The translations under genes were made by a program, and so were the position numbers. Under the pieces are notes generated by a model. It searched no databases and was not told where the DNA came from. It worked only from the letters and a program-made list of their open reading frames with translations. This document shows, piece by piece, positions 16,521-58,288 of a stretch of DNA of 64,000 nt; position 1 is the first letter of the stretch, and every line of letters starts with the position of its first letter. Origin of the DNA: Eledone cirrhosa (lineage: Eukaryota); assembly GCA_964016885.1 (NCBI GenBank), contig OZ024759.1, positions 21,080,001-21,144,000 on the forward strand, in the 5' to 3' direction.

Positions 16521-17336
16521 GCTGAACAGTTAAGAAGAGGGAGTTTGTTGAAAAGTCACAAAGCTATTCACTTTGTGCAGACAGCGTGAAATATTAACTT
16601 TTGTTTCTCTCCTTAGACACAGCAAATAACAACACTGCTATAGAAAGTCCCCCGTCCTATGAAAAGTTATATTATTAATGATGGCCGTTTGGTGGTTTCT
16701 TTTCTTTTTTGTTTTTATGGCTCAACGACAAAATACGCGCTAAATATTATATATCTATATAATATATATATACACGCACACATTCATGTGTGTGTATATA
16801 TATATTACACACAGATACACACACACACATATGTATAATATATATATATATATATTTCTAACTCAAAAATATACACGCATAAACATAGGCATACTTTATT
16901 TACATGGACAGAAGATACTTATGGAGATATATATATACATATATATATGTATTGGTGTAATGGTAACTCAGTGATTTGGTTAACCATCCCTTTTCCATTT
17001 TGAGAGGGTTCTAAACCCCACTATCAGGCTAAATTTTCTTTACTAAAAAAAAAAGCTTCTATTTCTACTAAATATATATATATGGTTGTTTATTCCCATC
17101 TTTGCGTTGCTTTCATCCTTCTATGTTGTTTACTTGTCTCACTCACTTTACGCGATTTACTTGTCCCAATAGCTTTTTTTAGTTATTGCTCGCACCAACC
17201 TGAGGTATATGATTTTTAATGCGATGAAATATCAATGATGGTTGGCAAATCACTGACGAAGGACTATTTTTATCATATGTAACCCATGTGCAACCACGCA
17301 GTATTCTTCTTTCTTCTCATGTTTTATATATATAAT

Positions 17337-17386
<50 letters not shown>

Positions 17387-17541
17387 AAGATCCCGTTAAG
17401 GGTGAAAGCAGCGATTCTTTGCTTAAACTTTAATCTGTTATTTTAATAAATACAGTATTTGCTCTAGGGTTCTTATATATTTGATATATATTTATCCTTA
17501 TCGAGCCCTCTTTGGATTTTAGTCTTCACATTTATTATTAT

Positions 17542-17545
<4 letters not shown>
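17387..17545 (+). mobile_element. Solo 3' terminal fragment of the PLE at 60334-61510 (duplicate at 32788-32946)
   Basis: Near-identical to the reverse complement of 60334-60487; (TA)n on both sides. Confidence 0.9.
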
Positions 17546-17583
<38 letters not shown>

Positions 17584-17604
17584 TGAAGCTGAAAAAAAAT
17601 TATC

Positions 17605-17658
17605 TGACTTTCCTGATGATTTCTTACGAATGAGACAGCTCTAGTCCTGTAGAAGTCA
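17605..17658 (+). ncRNA. Degenerate hammerhead, same family as 14887-14935 (duplicate at 33031-33084)
   Basis: TGACTTTC CTGATGA TTTCTTACGAAT GAGA CAG CTCTAGTC CTGT A GAAGTCA; the core GAAA is changed to GAGA. Confidence 0.7.
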
Positions 17659-18643
17659 TTTCTTTAATAAAATTATATATATATATATATACAGAGAGTG
17701 ACTTTTCAATACAGACTCAAAATGAGAGACCAAGACCTCACCCACCAAGCACTGACAACACACACACACACACACACACACACAGATGCACACGAATGTA
17801 TATGTGCGGAAGATGAGGGCGTGAAGGTCTCGAAACGTCGATAGACCTGTGTATTTAGGAAATCCTTTGTTCCTAACCAAACACAAAGAACTAATAAGGA
17901 AGTATGAAAAAACCCTTAATAATCATTGTTGTTGGGCGGGTGGAGGGGGGGGGTCCGGGTTATAGAATGGCGGGAGGTTACTGGATATGGGGAGGTCTGG
18001 TGGTGGTGGGTCCTGGTGATAGTGGTGGTGGTGGTTGTGCCGTTAGTGTTGGTGGTAGTTGTGGTGGTGGTTGTGCCGTTGGTGTGGTGGTAGTAGTAGA
18101 AGTTGCGCTAGTATTAGTGGTGGTTGGTGGTTGTGATGGTGGTGGGTAGTATTAGTGGTGGTGGTCGTAGTAGTGGTGGTAGTGGCCGTAGTAGTAGTGG
18201 CCGTAGTAGTAGTGGTGGTAGTAGCAATGATGGTACTACTATTAGTGGTCGTAGTAGTAGTAGTATTGGTAGTGGTGGCGGCTGTATTAGTGGTGGTAGT
18301 AGTGGTAGTGGTGGTAGTAGTGGTAGTGGCGGTAGTGGTAGTAGTAGTAGTAGTGGTAGTAGTGGTGCTGCTCCGCTACATTAACTGAGTCTAATTATGC
18401 TAAACTATAGCTTAACAATCTCCGGTGTTTTCAGCCTAAATTGAGCGGAAACTGTTTGTGTGGTGGTAGGGGGAGTGTTGGTGGGAGGAAGGTCTGGAGA
18501 CGGAGTAAGGGAGGGGGAAGAAGAAAGGGCGGGAAATGGACGCTTTATATATATATATTTAATATATATGTATGTATGTATATATATATATATGTGTGTG
18601 TATATATACGTGTATATCGTGTATATATATATGTGTGTGTGTG

Positions 18644-18701
<58 letters not shown>

Positions 18702-18902
18702 TATATATATATATGTGTGTGTGTGTATATATGTAATATGTGTGTGTGTGTATATATATGTGTGTGTGTGTGTAATATTGTGTGTGTGTGTATATATATA
18801 TATATGTATATATATATGTGTGTGTATATAGGTGTATATATATATATATGTGTGTGTGTATATATATATATGTATATATATATATGTGTGTATATATATA
18901 TG

Positions 18903-18933
<31 letters not shown>

Positions 18934-19104
18934 ATATGTATATATATATATGTATGTGTGTGTTATTTGTGTAAGCATACACAGCTAGGTAGGTAAGCAA
19001 TTAAACTTTAACTAGAACTTCAAATATAGATAGCTTTTAAAATGCTCGGATCTATTCATTGGAATCTTTGAGCATATTCTACAGTGGATATGGCGCATTT
19101 ATTT

Positions 19105-19196
<92 letters not shown>

Positions 19197-19325
19197 TCGT
19201 GGTTATAGCATTGGGCTTGCAATCGAAAGGTTGAGTTCAATTCTTGGACTGGGTGATGTGTTGTTTTCTTGAACAAGACACTTTATTTCACGTTGCTCCA
19301 GTTTACTCAGCTGTAGAAATGAGAT
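19197..19325 (+). mobile_element. tRNA-derived SINE, family S2, with CORE-like domain (duplicate at ~34670-34795)
   Basis: B box GAGTTCAATTC, then CTTGAACAAGACACTTTATTTCACGTTGCTCCAGTTTACTCAGCTGTAGAAATGAG, which resembles the MIR/CORE consensus. Confidence 0.75.
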
Positions 19326-19439
19326 GATAGGAGTGGGATCCCTATCATTAAATGACCCAAGACACCTCCAACGAGATATACATTGGCCAGCTAAACCTGC
19401 ACAGGTGTGAGCTGTCTCCTCCTCTCATATATATGTGTG

Positions 19440-19481
<42 letters not shown>

Positions 19482-19495
19482 CACACACATGCACA

Positions 19496-19724
19496 TACAC
19501 AATATAAATAACAATAAAAAAGTCTTTAAAATATTTAATCACTTACGATCGTTTCATCCTACCACAAATCCGGAATTTAGGATGAAACGATCGTGATTAA
19601 ATGTTTTAAACCCTCTTTGATTGTCATATATATTGTATATTGTATCCTGGATCTGTGGTATTCTCGGTATTTTACATTGTGCTATTTTCACACTTATAAA
19701 TGGGTAATATTTATTGCTACCCGC

Positions 19725-19727
<3 letters not shown>
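19496..19727 (+). mobile_element. Fold-back element with half-hammerhead arms (duplicate at ~34965-35197)
   Basis: Perfect 17-bp inverted repeat ACGATCGTTTCATCCTA/TAGGATGAAACGATCGT, extending imperfectly to about 19496-19640, then a unique tail and (TA)n. Confidence 0.8.
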
Positions 19728-19790
<63 letters not shown>

Positions 19791-19791
<1 letters not shown>

Positions 19792-19957
19792 CGAAGGAAA
19801 TGTGGTAAGGAACCAGGTGGACCATAACGCACCAAAGTACTCAATACTTAGGGTAGTAGAGTGGGTAATAGGAACAAGTAAGACCCCGACGGCTGACTCA
19901 GTCCAGAATTAGCCGTCGAAACGGCTTGAGCTCAGCCGTCGGGGTCTTACTTGTTCC
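19791..19957 (-). mobile_element. HP1 copy C (duplicate C' at 35246-35412)
   Basis: Reverse complement of copy D, with an internal deletion in the tail-proximal arm; (TA)n flanks. Confidence 0.9.
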
Positions 19958-20344
19958 TATATATATATATATATATATATATATGACGAGTGTATGCTGT
20001 TTGTGTGGTAAGCATTATTGTGCTGAAATGTTTTAATATTGGCTATGTATTGCTATATACGAGTAGCTATCTATTATTTTAATACCACGTATTTTTGTCA
20101 GGAATTCTGTATAATACTGATGTATTTTCCGTTAGTGTTTTCCTATACATCCTTATTAGTGTTCTGTGCTGTAGTGTGTTACAACTGCCCCTTGTTGTAA
20201 ATGTATGGGGAGCCTTCAAGAGAGTGTTGTACCACCACAACTACTACTACTACTACTACTACTACTACCAACATCATCACCATCAACAGAATCACAACCA
20301 TCAATACGCTTCCTGATGTCACTACCACCATCAACTGTTAGCGT

Positions 20345-20850
20345 CACCATCACCAACACCATCACCACTATGGTCAGCACCACCACTACAAACATCATCA
20401 CCAACACCATCACCACTATGGTCAGCACCACCACTACAAACATCATCACCAACACCATCACCACTATGGTCAGCACCACCACTACAAACATCATCACCAA
20501 CACCATCACCACTATGGCCAGCACCACCACTACAAACATCATCACCAACACCATCACCACTATGGCCAGCACCACCACTAGAAACATCATCACCAACACC
20601 ATCACCACTATGGTCAGCACCACCACTACAAACATCATCACCAACACCATCACCAACACCATCACCACTGTGGCCAGCACCACCACTACAAACATCATCA
20701 CCAACACCATCACCACTATGGTCAGCACCACCACTACAAACATCATCACCAACACCATCACCACTATGGTCAGCACCACCACTACAAACATCATCACCAA
20801 CACCATCACCACTATGGTCAGCACCACCACTACAAACATCATCACCAAAA
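20345..20850. repeat. 48-bp minisatellite, about 10 copies (duplicate at ~35810-36300)
   Basis: Unit CACCATCACCACTATGGTCAGCACCACCACTACAAACATCATCACCAA. Confidence 0.95.
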
Positions 20851-20879
20851 ACATCACGACCAGTAGAGACATTATCACC

Positions 20880-23800
20880 TAACAACAACAACATCACTAC
20901 CACCTCCACTACCATCACCACCACCACTAGCATCACCACCACCACCACCACAACCACTACCACTACCACCACCACCACCACCACCACCACCACCACTACC
21001 ACCACCACCACTACCACCACCAACAACACCACCAACACCAACAACACCACCACAACCACTACCACCACCAACACTACCACCACCACTACCATCACCACCA
21101 CTACCACCACCACCACTACCACCAACACCAACAACACCACCACAATCACCACCACCACCACCACAATCACCACCACCACCACCACCACCACCACCACCAC
21201 TACCACCACCAACAACACCACCACAACCACTACCACAATCACCACCACCACCACCACTACCACCAACACCAACAACACCACCACAATCACCACCACCACC
21301 ACCACCACCACCACAATCACCACCACCACCACCACCACTACCACCACCAACAACACCACCACCACCACCACCACAATCACCACCACCACCACCACTACCA
21401 CCAACACCAACAACACCACCACAATCACCACCACCACCACCACCACAATCACCACCACCACCACCACCACCACCACCACTACCACCACCAACAACACCAC
21501 CACAACCACTACCACCATCACCACCATCACTACCATCACCACCACCACCACCACCACCACCACTACCACCATCAAAATCTCTTTGCTAAACCATTCTCTA
21601 TGTTCCATGTTAATATGTTGTCACAGCCATTTAAATAGATTTTACATTAAACGGTGTAAACGACATTTGGAGGGGGGGGGGGTATGAGGAGAGGGTTGAG
21701 GAGGGGGTGGAATCAATATCGCCATCTCATCACCTCCGCCACCAACATCAGTGCTATGTTCACTTCCACCTTCGCCACCGCTGCAACCATTGCCATTACT
21801 GCAACTAGCACTGCCAACAACAACAACAGCCGCACCACCAGCAACAGCAACACAACCACCACCGCCAGCAACAGCAACACAACCACCAACACCAACAACA
21901 CCACCACCAGCACAACCACCACCAACAACATCACCACCACCAACACCACCACCACCAACAGCACAACCTCCACAAACACCACCACCAACAGCACCAGCAC
22001 GAACAACAGCACAACCTCCACCAACAACACCACGTCCTCCACCAACAACACCACCACCAACAACAACAACAACACCACAACCTCCACCAACAACACCACG
22101 TCCTCCACCAACAACACCACCACCACCAACAACAACAACAGCACAACCTCCACCAACAACACCACGTCCTCCACCAACAACACCACCACCACCAACAACA
22201 ACAACACCACAACCTCCACCAACAACACCACAACCTCCACCGACACCACGTCCTCCACCAACAACACCACGACCTCCACCAACAACACCACGACCTCCAC
22301 CAACAACACCACGACCTCCACCAACAACACCACAACCTCCACCAACAACACCACGACCTCCACCAACAACACCACGTCCTCCACCAACAACACCACGTCC
22401 TCCACCAACAACACCACGACCTCCACCAACAACACACCACTACCAACAACACCAACAACACCACGACCTCCACCAACAACACACCACTACCAACAACACC
22501 AACAACACCACGACCTCCACCAACAACACACCACTACCAACAACACCAACAACACCACGACCTCCACCAACAACACACCACTACCAACAACACCAACAAC
22601 ACCACGACCTCCACCAACAACACACCACTACCAACAACACCAACAACAACAACACCACCACCAACAACAACACACCACTACCAACAACACCAACAACACC
22701 ACGACCTCCACCAACAACACCACAACCTCCACCAACAACACCACGACCTCCACCAACAACAACACCACAACCTCCACCAACAACACCACCACAACCTCCA
22801 CCAACAACACCACCACAACCTCCACCAACAACACCACCACAACCTCCACCAACAACACCACGACCTCCACCAACAACAACACCACAACCTCCACCAACAA
22901 CACCACGTCCTCCACCAACAACGCCACAACCTCCACCAACAACACCACAACCTCCACCAACAACACCACGACCTCCACCAACAACAACACGACCTCCACC
23001 AACAACACCACAACCTCCACCAACAACACCACGACCTCCACCAACAACAACACCACAACCTCCACCAACAACACCACAACCTCCACCAACAACACCACGA
23101 CCTCCACCAACAACAACACCTCAACCTCCACCAACAACACCACGACCTCCACCAACAACACCACGACCTCCACCAACAACAACACCACAACCTCCACCAA
23201 CAACACCACGACCTCCACCAACAACACCACGACCTCCATTAACAACACCACAACCTCCACCGACACCACGTCCTCCACCAACAACACCACCACTACCAAC
23301 AACACCACCAACAACACCACGACCTCCACCAACAACAACACCACAACCTCCACCAACAACACCACGACCTCCACCAACAACACCACGACCTCCACCAACA
23401 ACACCACGACCTCCATTAACAACACCACAACCTCCACCGACACCACGTCCTCCACCAACAACACCACCACTACCAACAACACCACCAACAACACCACGTC
23501 CTCCACCAACAACGCCACAACCTCCACCAACAACGCCACAACCTCCACCAACAACACCACGACCTCCACCAACAACACCACGACCTCCACCAACAACACC
23601 ACGACCTCCACCAACAACACCACGACCTCCACCAACAACACCACGACCTCCACCAACAACACCACGACCTCCACCAACAACACCACGACCTCCACCAACA
23701 ACACCACGACCTCCACCAACAACACCACGACCTCCACCGACACCACGTCCTCCACCAACAACACCACCACTACCAACAACACCACCAACAACACCACGTC

Positions 23801-24232
23801 CTCCACCAACAACGCCACAACCTCCACCAACAACGCCACAACCTCCACCAACAACGCCACAACCTCCACCAACAACACCACGATCTCCACCAACAACACC
23901 ACAACCTCCACCAACAACGCCACAACCTCCACCAACAACGCCACAACCTCCACCAACAATACCACGATCTCCACCAACAACACCACGATCTCCACCAACA
24001 ACACCACGACCTCCACCAACAACACCAACAACACCACAACCTCCACCAACACCACGTCCTCCACCAACAACACCACAACCTCCACCAACAACACCACAAC
24101 CTCCACCAACAACAACAACACCACGTCCTCCACCAACAACACCACCACCAACAACAACAACAACACCACCACCAACAACACCACCAACAACAACAACAAC
24201 AACAACACCACCACCACCAACAACAACACCAA
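20880..24232. repeat. (ACC/AAC)n tracts and a 21-bp minisatellite CCACGACCTCCACCAACAACA
   Basis: Seen directly; includes a 47-bp variant unit at about 22430-22680. Confidence 0.95.
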
Positions 24233-24294
24233 TCATAAACAGATCACGATTTAAGGCCGTGTTATTTTATTTTTTTATCCAATGAATATTTTAG

Positions 24295-25204
24295 ATGTTG
24301 TTGTTGTTGGTGTTGGTGTTGGTGGTGGGGATGGTGTTGGTGGTGGGGTTGGTGGTGATGGGGATGGTGTTGGTGGTGGTGTTGATGGTGTTGTTGATGG
24401 TGGTAGTAGTGGTGTTGGTGGTAATGTTGTTGTTGATGGTGTTTTTGTTGATGTTGGTGGTGATGATGTTAGTGGTGTTGGTGGTGGTGGTGTTGGTAGT
24501 GGTGATGTTGTTGTTGTTGATGGTGTTTTGTTGATGTTAGTGGTGTTGGTGGTGGTGTTTTGTTGATGTAGGTGGTGTTGTTGGTGGTGATGGTGTTAGT
24601 GGTGTTGGTGGTGGTGGTGATGGTGTTAGTGGTGGTGGTGTTAGTGGTGGTGTTTTGTTGATGCTGGTAGATGTGATGTCGCTTTTGTTGGTGGTGTTGT
24701 TGTTGATATTGTTGATGGCAGCGGTGTTGGTGGTGATGGTGTCGTTGTTGTTCTTGTTGAGGATGGTGTTGTTATTAGTGGTGGTGGCGGTGTCGTTGCT
24801 AGGGATGATAGGGATGTTGCTGGTGGTGGTGATGTTTGTGGTCTTGATAGTGTTGTGTGATGGCGATGTTGTTGATGTTGGCGTTGTTGATTGTGGTGTT
24901 GTTGATGTTGTTGGTGGTGTTGGTGGTGATGTTGCTGGTGATGGCGGCGATAGTGTTGGTGTTGGTGGTGTTGGTGGTGTTGTTGGTGTTGTTGTTGTTG
25001 TTGGTTGTGGTGGTGGTGGCGATATTGTTGGTGTTGTGTGATGGCGATGTTGTTGATGTTGGCGTTGTTGATTGTGGTGTTGTTGATGTTGTTGGTGGTG
25101 TTGGTGGTGATGTTGCTGGTGATGGCGGCGATATTGTTGGTGTTGGTGGTGTTGTTGTTGTTGGTGGTGGCGGCGATATTGTTGGTGTTGTGTGATGGCG
25201 ATGG

Positions 25205-25266
<62 letters not shown>

Positions 25267-25693
25267 GTGTTGGTGGTGATGATGATGATGATTGTGGTGG
25301 TGTTGGTGGTGATGGTGGCGGTGCTATTAATGGTGTTGTTGTTGTTGTTGTTGATGTTGATGGTTGCCGGTGCTATTGGTGGTGTTGTTGTTGTTGTTGT
25401 TGTTGGTGGCAGTGCTATTGATGGTGGTGTTGTTGTTGGTGGTGTTGTTGGCGGTGCTATTGATGTCGTTGTTGATGGTGGCGATGCTGGTGTTGTTGTT
25501 GTTGTTGTTGGTGATATTGTTGATGTTGTTGTTGATATTGTTACATTTATCGCTTGTTGTTCTCATTGTTGTTAATGTTGTGTTGTGACTGTTGTTTTAG
25601 TTGTTGTTGCTTTCTTGCTAGTGTTAGTAATGTAATGTTTTTGCTGCTGCTGCTGTTGTTGTTTTATGTTTTTGCTGCTGCTGCTGCTGCTGC

Positions 25694-25736
<43 letters not shown>

Positions 25737-25737
25737 A
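24295..25737. repeat. (GGT/GTT/GAT)n low-complexity tract
   Basis: Seen directly; contains an internal repeat starting GTGTTGTGTGATGGCGATG at about 24850, 25031 and 25184. Confidence 0.9.
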
Positions 25738-26062
25738 ACTTAATGGCGACTCTGACATGATTAAATTTGCCTGTCTATTTGACGGAATTGTTTCCTAAAT
25801 GCCAGGCAGAAGATGGTAATTTCTTGAAGAAAGAGAGAGAGAGAACTACCACACACGCACATACACACACACACGCGCGCACACACACACAAACACACAC
25901 GCACACGCACGCACACACACACACACACAGGCACACACACACACACAGGCACACACACACACGGCCTCTTTTGATAAGACGGACGCGGCAGTAGGAAAAG
26001 AAAGGAGAGGGAGAGTGTGTGAGAAAGAAAAACTAGCGAAAGGAGAGCTGCACGATAGTGGG

Positions 26063-26138
<76 letters not shown>

Positions 26139-26194
26139 AAGCTGGATGAAGACGAGAAAGAAAAAAGTGAGAAAAAGAGGGAGGCTGTGTATGA

Positions 26195-26227
<33 letters not shown>

Positions 26228-27190
26228 GATATGTGTGTGTCTGTGTATGAGTGTGTGTGTGTGTGTGTGTGTGTGTGGTTGTGAGTCTCTGTGTGTGAAG
26301 AAGAAGAAAGTGGAAGAAAGAGGGACAGGGAGAGCAATTGCAAACATAGAGAGTGGTTGTATTGGAGTGAAATAAGGTTGGAGGGAGTGGGCAGGACAGA
26401 GAACAAGGGAGAGAGAGAGAGAAGAAGAAGGAATTGAGCGGGAGAGAGAATGAAAGAGAACAAGAGAGAGTGAAAGAGAGAGAGAGAGCTGCGTGTAAGA
26501 AGATAGAGAAAGCTGCATTGAAAAGACACTGAGTGAATATATAGAAGTGGAATGAGGAAAAATGAAGAGAGTGCGTGTGTATATGTATGTGTAAGTTTGT
26601 GTGTGTTTATATATATATATATGTATGTGTGTAAGTGTGTGTGTGTGTATATATGTATGCGTGTGTGTGTGTGTGCGTATATATATGTATGCGTGTGTAA
26701 GTGTGTGTATATGTATGTGTGTAAGTTTGTGTGTATATATGTGTGTGTGTGTAAGTTTGTGTGTATATATATATATATGTATGTGTATGTATAGATGTGT
26801 GTGTAAGTTGGTGTGTGTATATATATGTGTGTGTGTATATATATGTGTGTAAGTTTGTGTGTGTATAAATGTGTATGTATATATATATGTGTGTATATAC
26901 ATACACACACATATATATATACACACACAAACTTACACATATGCATATATATATGTGTATATATATATATGTGTGTGTAAATTTGTGTGTATGTATACAT
27001 ATGTATGTGTAAGTGTGTGTGTATATATATGTATGTATGTGTAAGTTTGTGTATATATATATATGTATGTGTGTGTAAGTGTGTGTGTGTATATATATAT
27101 ATATGTATGCGTGTGTAAATGTGTGTGTGAAATAGGTATGTGTGTGTATAAGATGTGTGTGTAAGTGTGTATGTTTATAAAATATGCATA

Positions 27191-27222
<32 letters not shown>

Positions 27223-27494
27223 AAATATGTATGTGTGTGTGTGTGTGTAAATATATAAAATATGTATATATATTTATGTGTGTGTGTGTGTGTAAATAGA
27301 AATAGTAGGAAGAGGAGGAAGAATGAGGGAGGGGGAGGTGCCCCCCTACCCCCGGGGTGAGGAGGAGGGAGAGGGGCTAATTCCATGATAGACACAAACC
27401 ATTTATCAAGACTATTAAGAACACGCTAAACGGTAATTTATTCTTACAAACACAGACTCACACATACTCACACACACACTGGCACATACACATA

Positions 27495-27995
27495 TACACA
27501 CACACACACTGGCACACCCCTCTCTCACCCCCCTCTCTGCCTCTCTCTCACCCCCCCCCCCTCTCTGCCTCTCTCTCACCCCCGCTCTGCCTCTCTCTCA
27601 CCCCCGCTCTGCCTCTCTCTCACCCCCTCTCTGCCTCTTTCTCACCCCTCTCTGCCTCTCTCTCACCCCCCTCTCTGCCTCTCTCTCACCCCCTCTCTGC
27701 CTCTCTCTCACCCCCCTCTCTGCCTCTCTATCACCCCCTCTCTATCACCCCCTCTCTGCCTCTCTCTCACACCCTCTCTGCCTCTCTCACCCCTTCTCTG
27801 CCTCTCTCCCCCTTCTCTGCCTCTCTCCCCCCTTCTCTCCTCTCTCTCCCCCCTTCTCTGCCTCTCTCTCCCCCCTCTCTGCCCCTCTCTCTCCTCTCTC
27901 TGCCTCTCTGCCTCTCTCTCTCTCTCTCTCCCTCCCTCTCTCTCACTCTCTCTCTCTCCCTCTCTGTCTCCCTCTCCCCATTCCCCACTCTCTCT
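27495..27995. repeat. ~22-bp CT-rich minisatellite CTCTCTGCCTCTCTCTCACCCC
   Basis: Seen directly. Confidence 0.9.
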
Positions 27996-28625
27996 CTCCT
28001 CGCCGATTCTTAATAATTCTCTTGTCCGCCATCTTATTTTCTCTACCTGTGACTTTCTTGCAGTTTCTCCATTTTTTTTTTGTTTTCGACCTTCCTTCCT
28101 TTTCTTCTTCTTCCTTGCTTCGATATTATAACGCATGTTTCTTCCTCGGCCTCCTCCACCCTCTCCTCCACCTCCGCCTCACTCCCTCCACCCTCTCCGC
28201 CGCCTCTTCCACCCCCTCCAACTTCTTGTCCTTCTATATTATTATTATTTTTATTATTATTATCTTCATAAATATCATCAGCTTCCCTATTTCTTCTCCA
28301 TATATCTCGTTCATTTCACCATAATATATTCATATATACATATGTATGTATGTATATATATATATATATGTATGTATATATATATATATATGTATGTATA
28401 TATATATATATATGTATGTATATGTGTATATGTATATATAATATATATATGTATGTATATGTGTATATGTATGTGTATATATATATGTATATGTATGTAT
28501 ATGTGTATATATATATGTGTATATATATGTGTATATGTATATGTGTATATGTATATGTGTATATATATATGTATATATATATGTATATATATATATGTAT
28601 ATGTGCGTATATATACATGTGTATG

Positions 28626-28671
<46 letters not shown>

Positions 28672-29007
28672 GTATATAAGTATATATATACACTACTATT
28701 GCTGAGATTCCATCACCACCCCAATATATATTTTCACAAGGAAGATCTTTCTATATATACACTTAGTTTGTGTATATATAATCTAAAGAATATGTTACAA
28801 CACATATATATTCATATATATGCATAATTTGTGTGTGAGTATGTGTATATATATATATATATACATTATGCATAATGTATATACTTATATATATGTCGGT
28901 GTATTTATCTCTCTATGTATGTATGTATGTGTGTGCATATATACGTATGTGTGTATATATATATATACGTAAATATATATGTGTGTGTGTGTGTGAATAT
29001 ATATGTA

Positions 29008-29039
<32 letters not shown>

Positions 29040-29499
29040 CGTATATGATCTATACGTGCATATGTGTGTATATGTATATATAGAGATATATACGTATATG
29101 TGTATATATGTATATAGATGTATATAGATGTGTGTGTAAGAAATCTATTCTCATCAACACACCACACCTCACCACCTAGTTTATTTTTTCCCTCCTACCC
29201 CCTTATCGTTGTCTCTCTTCACTATTTACATATTTTATATTGAACATACTGCTTTCATATACGATATTTGAATATTCATTGCAAGTTATCTCCCTTTGTA
29301 TTTATTATTTATTGTTTGTGTTCGTGTTGTTGTTTGTTATTTTTTTAAATAAATTATTGCTATTGCTGTTTAAGGAGTTTTAATGGAGCGGCAGAGCTTC
29401 CGATAGAATGCCTTGTGTTATTTAGAGTAGTGATTTTCAAATGGATCCCTTGAAGAATTTTAGCCAAGGGAAATTTTGAGAGACTTCGAAACACGGAAA

Positions 29500-31165
<1,666 letters not shown>

Positions 31166-31211
31166 AGAAAATGCGAAGTAGTTTAAGATGTTAAAGTCAT
31201 TTAATGATAAT

Positions 31212-31286
31212 GCTGTGATACATATTTCAATGACGACAGTGGCCACACGATCCCGTGTACCCAGTGCCGTGACATCATCAGACAGC
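31212..31286 (-). ncRNA. Type I hammerhead with long stem II (duplicate at 46652-46726)
   Basis: Minus strand GCTGT CTGATGA [TGTC ACGGCACTGGGTACACG GGAT CGTGTGGCCACTGTCGT CATT] GAA ATATGTAT C ACAGC. Perfect 5-bp stem I; 15 of 17 positions paired in stem II; AUC triplet. Confidence 0.85.
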
Positions 31287-31415
31287 TTCTTACATAATAA
31301 GGTTACGCTCCCGAGGCAATCCAACTCGAATCGACAAGGGAACGGACAAAGCGGATGTTCTTGGATCCTTCGCCCGTTCATATATATATATACGTGTTTT
31401 CTTCAGACAAAAATG

Positions 31416-31485
31416 TTTGTCTGAAGAGAACACGTAGGGCAGTTGTTATATAACTGCCTTAAGTCTTTGAAATACGTATAACAAA
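31416..31485 (+). ncRNA. Type I hammerhead (duplicate at 46856-46925)
   Basis: TTTGT CTGAAGA [..AGGGCAGTTGT TAT ATAACTGCCTT..] GAA ATACGTAT A ACAAA, followed by AATAAA. Palindromic stem III; AUA triplet. Confidence 0.85.
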
Positions 31486-31517
31486 ATAAATAAGGATGTA
31501 CAAATGAAACCGTCTTC

Positions 31518-31667
31518 GGTAGAGCGTCAGACACCATGCTTTGCAGCGTAGTTACGGCTTTTTACGTCTGAGTTCAAATCCCGCCTTTCATCCTTACGGG
31601 GTCGATAAAATAAAGTACCAGTAATGTACTGGGCAATTGGTGGCCTTGTGCCAAACGTTGAAACATT
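31518..31667 (+). mobile_element. SINE family S1 (duplicate at 46958-47108)
   Basis: Aligns to 14459-14625 with an internal deletion after AAATCCCGCC. Confidence 0.8.
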
Positions 31668-31759
31668 ATATACATATATATATCAAATGAAATACCAATA
31701 TACCCAACTACAGTGTTTGTGTATATATATCAAATGTAATGTCAATATATCCAACTATA

Positions 31760-31959: not shown

Positions 31960-47200
<15,241 letters not shown>

Positions 47201-47328: not shown

Positions 47329-47407
<79 letters not shown>

Positions 47408-47409
47408 TA

Positions 47410-47630
47410 GTGAAGGCGTGTGGCTGAGTGGTTAGGGAATTGGATTCGGAATCGTAAGGTTGTGAGTTCGATTCCTGGACCAGGTGATGCGTTATGTCCT
47501 TGAGCAAGACACTTTATTTCACGTTGCTCCTTCTACCTGGAGTTGCGACCGATAGATAGTATTAGCAATTGGAAAGACCAACGGAAACATTGTTCCCTCG
47601 GTCCGATTTGACGAAAGTCGATCGTTCCTT
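47410..47630 (+). mobile_element. Chimeric S2 SINE: tRNA head and partial CORE joined to a distinct ~100-nt tail
   Basis: A box TGGCTGAGTGG, B box GAGTTCGATTCC, GTCCTTGAGCAAGACAC; inverted homologue at 55039-55259. Confidence 0.85.
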
Positions 47631-47638
47631 AAAATATA

Positions 47639-47694
<56 letters not shown>

Positions 47695-47814
47695 TATATA
47701 TGTGTGTGTCTATCAACTGAAATACCAATATACCCAACTATAGTGTGTGTATATATATATATATATGTCTCTCCACCACTCCCCTACACACCCTTGGAAC
47801 TCTCTTTCCACACA

Positions 47815-47852
47815 CTTTTCACCTGAAGAAGGGCTTATGCCCGAAACGTCGT
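47815..47852 (+). ncRNA. Minimal PLE-type hammerhead motif in a TA-flanked island (47766-47942)
   Basis: CTGAAGA A GGGC TTAT GCCC GAA ACGT C; palindromic ACGT stem III; only 2 bp of local stem I; AATAAA at about 47890. Confidence 0.7.
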
Positions 47853-47938
47853 TCCCCACCACCACCCCACTCTCAAGAGCGTGAAACTAATAAACCTTTG
47901 TTCGTACTGCCTCTCTGTTTTGTTCCCGTTCAATTTTT

Positions 47939-47982
<44 letters not shown>

Positions 47983-54310: not shown

Positions 54311-54675
54311 TGTGTATATATATATATATAAATATATATAGTGTTGTTACTTCGTTGAAATCTCATCAAATGATAAGCCACTTGTCTTCCTTCGCATCCG
54401 CCATTTTGTTCCAGTTCCACGTCCTGTGATATTGGTTAATGCATTGTATGTATATCGATATGTGTGTGTGTGTATATATATTCGTGAAGTTTATTTATAT
54501 ATATATATATATATATATACGTGTGTGTGTGTGTGTAGATATGTGTATAGATGTGTGTGCATGCATGCCCATTTTATGCTATTGAATATGTAATACTCGG
54601 CATCTGTAGTGTACGGCTTCGTGCCTAAATGTAGATATGCACATACACACTATAATATATATATATATATATATA

Positions 54676-54867
54676 GGAACAGGTAAGACCCCGACGGCAG
54701 AGCTCAAGCCATTTCGACGGCTAATTCTGAAGTCCATAATTAGTCGTCGAAACGGCTTGAGCTCTGCCGTCGGGGTCTTACATGTTCCTATTACCCACTC
54801 TACTACCCTAAGTATTGAGTACTTTGGTGCGTTATGGTCCACCTGGTTCCTTACCACATTTCCTTCG

Positions 54868-54868
<1 letters not shown>
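54676..54868 (+). mobile_element. HP1 copy D
   Basis: Arms GGAACAGGTAAGACCCC...GGGGTCTTACATGTTCC plus tail; (TA)n flanks. Confidence 0.92.
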
Positions 54869-54912
<44 letters not shown>

Positions 54913-55038
54913 GATGTGTGTGTGTGTAGTATAGGTGTTTCAGTGAATTACTGGTAGTTGTAGATATGTATGTATATCTGTGTATGTGTATACATATGAA
55001 TGTGTATACATATATATATATATATATACATATATATA

Positions 55039-55256
55039 AAGGAACGATCGACTTTCGTCAAATCGGACCGAGGGAACAATGTTTCCGTTGGTCTTTCCAA
55101 TTGCTAATACTATCTATCGGTCGCAACTCCAGGTAGAAGGAGCAACGTGAAATAAAGTGTCTTGCTCAAGGACATAACGCATCGCCTGGTCCAGGAATCG
55201 AACTCACAACCTTACGATTGTGAATCCAAATCTCTAACCACTCCGCCACACGCCTT

Positions 55257-55259
<3 letters not shown>
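55039..55259 (-). mobile_element. Chimeric S2 SINE, inverted homologue of 47410-47630
   Basis: Reverse-complement match; the differences are confined to the tRNA head. Confidence 0.85.
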
Positions 55260-58132: not shown

Positions 58133-58288
58133 TACTTTATTCTATCGACCACGTAAGGATGAAAGGCAAAGTTAACCTCAAATCCCGCCGAAGTTAACTT
58201 TGCCTTTCATCCTTTCAGGGTCGATAAAATAAAGTACCAGTAATGCACTGATAATTGCTGACCTTGTGCCAAAAGTAGAAACAATTAT
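58133..58288 (+). mobile_element. SINE S1 with an inverted 47-bp copy at its 5' end, inserted in the LINE 3' UTR
   Basis: 58133-58179 is an imperfect reverse complement of 58190-58236. Confidence 0.8.

Follow-up and report, generated by a model that had tools for sequence, protein, structure and literature searches.

A hairpin repeat at 54676-54868 of the window (the whole 64-kb stretch of DNA analysed here) raises the question of why the two arms of each copy carry the same variants, and of what kind of element leaves such copies behind. An earlier note on this DNA had described six copies whose arms co-vary, had offered as causes either the templating of one arm by the other or selection for pairing, and had proposed that the RNA might be a half-ribozyme substrate cut in trans by a parental element.

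Structure of the repeat and its copies in the window

The repeat is short (~195 nt), very abundant and embedded in TA runs, and the window as a whole is microsatellite-rich DNA of eukaryotic type. A full copy is ordered as (TA)n, inverted arm, direct arm, 78-nt one-sided tail and (TA)n. In the copy at 54676-54868 (copy D) the parts are as follows:

54656-54675, no strand: (TA)n run on the tail-less side, the likely insertion target
54676-54730, minus strand: inverted arm, ending at TA just ahead of where the tail would start
54731-54790, plus strand: direct arm, starting with AGTCC, the point at which a one-armed form of the repeat continues upstream with other sequence
54748-54771, plus strand: probable 3' half of a type I hammerhead (C-GAAA, helix III, GUC; C17 at 54771)
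54791-54868, plus strand: 78-nt tail, present on one side only and identical in copies C and D
54869-54910, no strand: (TA)n run past the tail

Both outer ends are fixed at TA, with the inverted arm halting at the TA ahead of the tail, whose own end lies at another TA; in addition, the (TA)n run at 54656-54675 and the end of the arm have ATA in common, a microhomology at the outer end. The hairpin of copy D folds with a predicted energy of -110.6 kcal/mol (z -15.45), and 0 of 200 shuffles were as stable.

BLAST and inspection of the 64-kb window located six loci. The outer-arm sequences previously quoted for copies A, C, D and E were found at 11051-11186, 19869-19957, 54676-54788 and 61564-61676, and the count of six holds for loci, but only five of these are independent copies, one of them (B) one-armed. 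The loci other than D are:

11051-11264, plus strand: copy A, two arms; part of the inverted arm is duplicated internally, the junction is short of 4 nt and the tail is full
14640-14768, plus strand: copy B, a single 5'-truncated arm and a tail with its end intact
19791-19957, minus strand: copy C, a full inverted arm, a direct arm without 26 nt and a full tail
35246-35412, minus strand: duplicate of C, letter-identical to it within a 15-kb duplication and not independent
61511-61676, minus strand: copy E, a near-perfect hairpin with its tail cut to 51 nt

The 15-kb duplication (16540-31759 vs 31960-47200, 93% by blastn) flanks a 200-N gap and may be assembly or haplotype redundancy.

An inverted 5'-truncated copy lies head to head beside a direct copy in A, C, D and E. 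Copies A, C and D have (TA)n on both sides, E has it on one side only, its tail being cut, and B is flanked by TA-rich sequence on the left and (TA)n on the right. The (TA)n flanks and the 78-nt one-sided tail are diagnostic features that the earlier note had passed over. Its statement that the centre lies at nearly the same place in every full copy needs correcting: only D and E, which belong to different subfamilies, have a centre, or junction, in common, and it differs in A and C, whose inverted arms extend further at the junction than their direct arms. Nor is the inner stem matched on both arms throughout, as had been claimed: the tail-side arm of C is without the 26 nt that include the stem, in D the stem has one mismatch, and in A part of it is missing.

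Co-variation of the arms

In 4/4 two-armed independent copies (A, C, D, E), the closest match to the inverted arm is the direct arm of that copy. Three parts of the arm entered the distances (outer segment, loop site and inner site; the inner site of the direct arm of A was left out), which came to 2, 0, 1 and 0; their total of 3, against a mean of 12.6, was reached by 1/120 assignments. The tails of C and D are identical, but both arms of C carry two letters absent from D, and this observation together with the assignment result establishes that the co-variation reported in the earlier note is real.

The cause, of the two then offered, appears to be templating, in the sense that both arms were copied from the same source, which is supported by the clustering of the arms and by the existence of the one-armed form. 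Selection for pairing finds no support. Mismatches accumulate in the arms (5/58 pairs in D, 2/58 in E), with two compatible with G-U pairing on each strand, three on neither and no strand preference for G-U; they look like neutral decay. Furthermore, the paired region takes in the core of the ribozyme.

The probable hammerhead 3' half and its predicted inactivity

The presence of GAAA, helix III and GUC was confirmed, and CUGANGA proved absent from all six loci. In copy D, helix III is formed by 54752-54756 paired with 54766-54770 (5-6 bp), with a loop that holds the palindrome GAGCTC, and is followed by the NUH site. A descriptor consisting of C-GAAA, a 5-bp helix and GUC, written post hoc when the motif had already been seen, was found in 29/20,000 shuffles of the E arm and 32/20,000 of the D arm plus tail. 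Dropping the leading C raises the counts to 81 and 140 per 20,000, respectively, and allowing a helix of only 3 bp raises them to 1,418 and 2,029, i.e., 7-10%. From these sequence comparisons, the hammerhead 3' half is probably real. C11.1 is likewise present, as part of the helix II closure G10.1-C11.1, and the closing G falls past the contig end of the one-armed form.

Other hammerhead features are missing. CUGANGA is not visible in the 30-letter upstream consensus of the one-armed form, taken from the loose ends of run X1. Rfam at gathering score gave 0 matches across the window; by e-value, no hammerhead was found among the best 150 of 202 matches for 10900-20100 or in 25/25 matches for 54600-54900, in both listings the entries were of hairpin type and fell under the threshold. 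Each copy stands alone, with its arms head to head, and no head-to-tail tandem units with a complete hammerhead were found among them. An intact hammerhead in which the outer and inner stems were helices I and II, with one strand overwritten, was also considered and dropped, because the one-armed form has other sequence at the centre.

Folding predictions bear on the proposal of a substrate cut in trans and maintained by selection for pairing, a reading that we find scarcely credible. In the direct arm alone there is indeed a GUC site, next to a stable helix III that forms with a predicted probability of 0.8; in the D and E hairpins, however, helix III is predicted not to form on either strand, and C17 is buried, being unpaired with a predicted probability of 6e-5 on either strand. 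Arm mismatches without strand preference for G-U pairs argue against selection as well, and templating accounts for the co-variation by itself. Self-cleavage of the hairpin copies is predicted to be impossible, and with only the 3' half of the hammerhead kept the element would have no ribozyme activity.

Neighbouring elements of the same build

The window also contains head-to-head elements in which the hammerhead core is complete, the clearest of which served as an internal control:

12337-12805, no strand: control palindrome unrelated to the repeat, composed of (TA)n, an 84-nt one-sided tail, two ~190-nt arms and (TA)n

The control has 2 mismatches in 180 pairs, its inverted arm ends at TA, and both arms carry CUGAAGA...GAAA, that is, complete hammerhead cores. 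A second, shorter head-to-head junction with a CUGAAGA core lies at 31393-31434. Since these controls have the same build, the head-to-head arrangement is general in the window and goes with hammerhead cores.

These findings bear on whether the repeat is instead a fold-back DNA element (MITE-like, Helitron-like or of the tyrosine-recombinase type) whose likeness to a hammerhead is due to chance. Such an element would be compatible with the lack of CUGANGA, of a visible parent ORF and of an Rfam hammerhead among the matches listed, and TA flanks also suit DNA transposons. We nevertheless regard it as very unlikely: the inverted repeats are not terminal, with a tail outside one arm, so that the inverted repeats at both termini of a MITE or TIR transposon were not found; copy B is 5'-truncated with its tail end intact; the 3' half motif occurs in just 29-32/20,000 shuffles (by the post hoc descriptor; 7-10% by the looser one); and neighbours with full hammerhead cores have the same build.

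Several other elements were observed in the window. The centre of the control palindrome holds a short filler that repeats part of the arm in reverse. At 31393-31490 and 46833-46930 a head-to-head junction that starts at a (TA)n run has a long helix II and a core reading CUGAAGA, and at 47767-47941 a (TA)n-flanked island contains a minimal PLE-type hammerhead (at 47823) made up of CUGAAGA, one extra base, a 4-bp helix II and GAAACGUC. A small family at 14878-15039, 17610-17690 and 33036-33116 has CUGAUGA and a long outer stem with no clear helix III, and further degenerate cores lie at 15264 and near 17810. Two dispersed repeat families are also present. One, which we presume to be SINE-like, is found at 55029-55259, 47404-47642 and 19188-19299, one copy lying 160 nt from D; the other occupies 14457-14640, 31516-31683, 46956-47124 and 58133-58286, with part of it at 58133-58236 forming an inverted pair with 44-nt arms.

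Relatives in public reads and the one-armed form

To extend the analysis beyond the window, four public sequencing runs (X1, X18, X4 and X7, of 20 listed) were compared to copy D at 80% likeness. The family is very large: it accounts for 18,644 X1 contigs and for 22,554 of the 12.47 million X18 reads, both runs coming from one organism (organism A). The 3 contigs of X4 and 4 of X7 may be stray DNA and do not demonstrate presence in other species. The tail-less end followed by (AT)n is seen in 3,615 X18 reads and 171 X1 contigs. Two further features of the read data, a pile of X18 read ends at 54726 and 54738 (on AATT) and a dip in read depth at the hairpin centre, are likely a library restriction cut and a technical effect, respectively. 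Variant frequencies at mirror sites were not taken as evidence of co-variation, because reads can align to either arm.

The one-armed form appears as loose ends ahead of 54731 in X1 (109 contigs), X4 (2) and X7 (1). The consensus sequences of the three runs are identical in their final 14 letters (X1 agreement 0.47), the outer part of the 30-letter X1 consensus is AT-rich at the same agreement of 0.47, and the X18 consensus ahead of 54731 (745 reads, 0.46) is similar, not identical, to the others. As these upstream letters differ from the inverted arm, the centre of D and E is an inversion product, and the hairpin was likely made by inversion. A clean 22-nt upstream sequence of the one-armed form, from a single contig, pairs with the 10 nt before GUC-GAAA in a helix II-like manner with one bulge; by a post hoc count, 373 of 2,000,000 random 22-mers of the same composition do so, and such pairing could also be left over from an earlier inversion. 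Separately, loose ends ahead of 54785 (173 X1 contigs, 2,230 X18 reads) mark a more diverged subfamily with a different arm before the same tail.

Joints within the reads vary in position. Among the joints listed, 10/15 depart from the inverted arm at 54727-54729 and arrive at 10 sites within 54780-54831; each joint is carried by 1-2 contigs with sides of 21-28 letters, and such joints are flagged as unreliable in repeats. Among the joint inserts listed, 2/12 run on into the one-armed sequence (GACTA), and deletion from the D/E hairpin therefore cannot explain those two joints. A further 26 joints, 31 inserts and 374 loose ends exist beyond those listed. The inner ends of B, A, C and the X1 joints differ, most of them lying near 54731, a pattern that deletion afterwards could also yield.

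The hairpin might have been born once or a few times and have spread ready-made, its arms homogenised by DNA conversion or template switching and its various centres arising as later apex deletions. The junction common to D and E across subfamilies accords with such a history, as does the CTGGAG centre, the commonest among X1 contigs spanning it (54730 A>G in 71 contigs); moreover, palindromes tend to lose their centres. We consider this history quite unlikely, as it would require at least five sites over four variant types each to be copied onto both arms while unrepaired mismatches persist in old copies, and as the one-armed form exists, with two of the listed joint inserts holding its sequence.

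A Penelope-like element as the proposed source

Inverted 5'-truncated copies beside direct copies, with a one-sided tail, are often left by insertions of Penelope-like elements (PLEs), some clades of which use (TA)n targets, according to portions of PMC8557442, PMC3846280 and PMC8969392. Truncated PLEs give pairs of opposite-strand hammerheads 100-700 bp apart, as described in part of PMC4209133. In vitro, purified PLE protein cleaves both strands at AT-rich sites and extends them, and it initiates at two sites within the RNA, the tail being the stretch between them (excerpts of PMC11167929), and the Penelope element of D. virilis has an internal promoter (excerpt of PMC2377424).

We hypothesize, at slightly better than even confidence, that the repeat is the truncated end of a PLE (its pseudo-LTR region) and that the two arms are cDNAs of one source RNA joined head to head. 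The features observed directly are the build, the match of arms within a copy, the two outer ends fixed at TA, the one-armed form and the clustered inner ends; assignment to the PLEs rests on insertion structure, with the inverted copy, the one-sided tail and the AT-rich or microsatellite target all found. A PLE enzyme would nick a (TA)n target on each strand, with priming from one nick at the tail end (54868) and from the other ~80 nt upstream (54790). Both cDNAs would then extend to a common stop at ~54731, possibly the 5' end of the RNA, and be fused head to head at a point that can shift by a few bases. If source loci carry differing subfamily variants, each copy would show the variants of its source on both arms. 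The stop would lie downstream of the expected CUGANGA position, leaving the hammerhead 3' half alone. Joining of two cDNAs would accordingly account for arms that match, for a tail on a single side, for outer ends at set positions and for a junction that varies by a few bases, as well as for the missing CUGANGA half. TTAGTCC at the stop of the one-armed form fits what we take to be the initiator consensus.

Copies A and C speak for two cDNAs only on condition that their direct arms were short from the start and were not cut back by deletion afterwards. Among the observations against the PLE model are the 78-nt tail, which exceeds the 30-40 nt of published PLE tails, the common junction of D and E, which is also expected from inheritance of a ready-made hairpin, and the junctions of A and C, which are compatible as well with deletion from a hairpin whose centre base had flipped. 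Flip-flop at the centre in the style of rolling-hairpin replicons may have occurred but need not be invoked, because A and C simply extend the inverted arm further.

The same PLE origin could also involve a single cDNA that folds back at its 3' end and primes itself, halting where ATA pairs with the (TA)n target. This route guarantees arms identical at birth, as observed, and the ATA microhomology is found at the outer end. A self-copied arm cannot, however, exceed the content of the direct arm, and it does so in A, C and the listed X1 joints, so the self-priming model must add later deletions; nor does the D/E centre retain the loop of the one-armed form. Self-priming has been proposed for PLE inverted junctions in a section of PMC3846280, and for this family we judge it unlikely.

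A more specific and still tentative version of the two-cDNA model, to which we give appreciably less than even credence, holds that the PLE promoter starts in the helix II loop and that the resulting 140-nt half-ribozyme RNA has been mass-retrotransposed by double-ended priming, with the cDNAs fused at each insertion.

No parent ORF of the RT/GIY-YIG type was matched among the 123 complex open frames of the window, a set that leaves aside low-complexity frames and those of the duplication's second copy. Peptide searches with a 45-codon open frame through the arm and tail found no relatives; given also the lack of third-position bias at the listed variant sites, it was rejected as coding. Matches to 7tm_1 and TetR_C_8 among the frames of the window were below cut-off and were disregarded.

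Comparison with known systems

The hairpin repeat resembles the inverted pLTR insertions of endonuclease-bearing PLEs, as presented in parts of PMC8557442 and PMC3846280, in its head-to-head copy, its one-sided tail, its microsatellite or AT-rich target and the absence of a discernible target duplication. In contrast to the insertions in those same parts, it is only ~195 nt long with no ORF seen, its tail measures 78 nt vs 30-40, and its inner ends both cluster at one site. With the type I hammerheads of PLE pLTRs, as far as covered by the relevant text of PMC4209133, it has in common the C before GAAA, the GAAAC...GUC arrangement, a palindromic loop 3 and, in the one-armed form, a candidate long helix II; unlike them, it lacks CUGANGA and has its core buried in a hairpin, and its helix III of 5-6 bp is longer than that of the minimal metazoan motifs.

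Poseidon PAc of Anolis in vitro is similar in having two start sites that bound the tail, AT-rich cut sites and a hammerhead a short distance upstream of the start sites; relative to the portion of PMC11167929 used here, the head-to-head joining of two cDNAs is proposed for the present repeat only. Non-LTR retrozymes, from a partial view of bioRxiv 10.64898/2026.07.22.740005, are likewise short repeats that are non-coding, derive from PLEs and carry a type I hammerhead motif, but they form head-to-tail tandems of complete ribozymes, whereas the hairpin repeat is dispersed and head to head with half of the core missing. It is therefore not classed as a hammerhead ribozyme or retrozyme, as the core strand and the tandem build were looked for and not found.

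Exact-pattern scans of viral contigs, metagenome contigs and prokaryote genomes gave no matches. Nine short motifs from the hairpin family and the control were absent from the supplement of PMC8557442, in which line breaks could hide matches. No published description of the family was found in the literature searched, repeat databases and most subscription papers excepted.

Significance

As a functional RNA the repeat is of little importance, since its co-variation is a by-product of copying, and it offers a caution for covariation screens in repeat-rich genomes. Its structure is of a known kind, and the mildly new part is the fixed junction inside the hammerhead. How the inverted structures of PLEs arise is posed as an unsolved problem in the part of PMC8557442 drawn on here, and the high copy number and fixed junction make the family a useful test set for models of PLE inversion: among thousands of young, short copies with markers on both arms, discordant arms and the longer arm at the junction can be counted. 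If the reading of a promoter in the helix II loop with double-ended priming were true, the family would be a genome-wide natural record able to decide between self-priming and two-strand priming.
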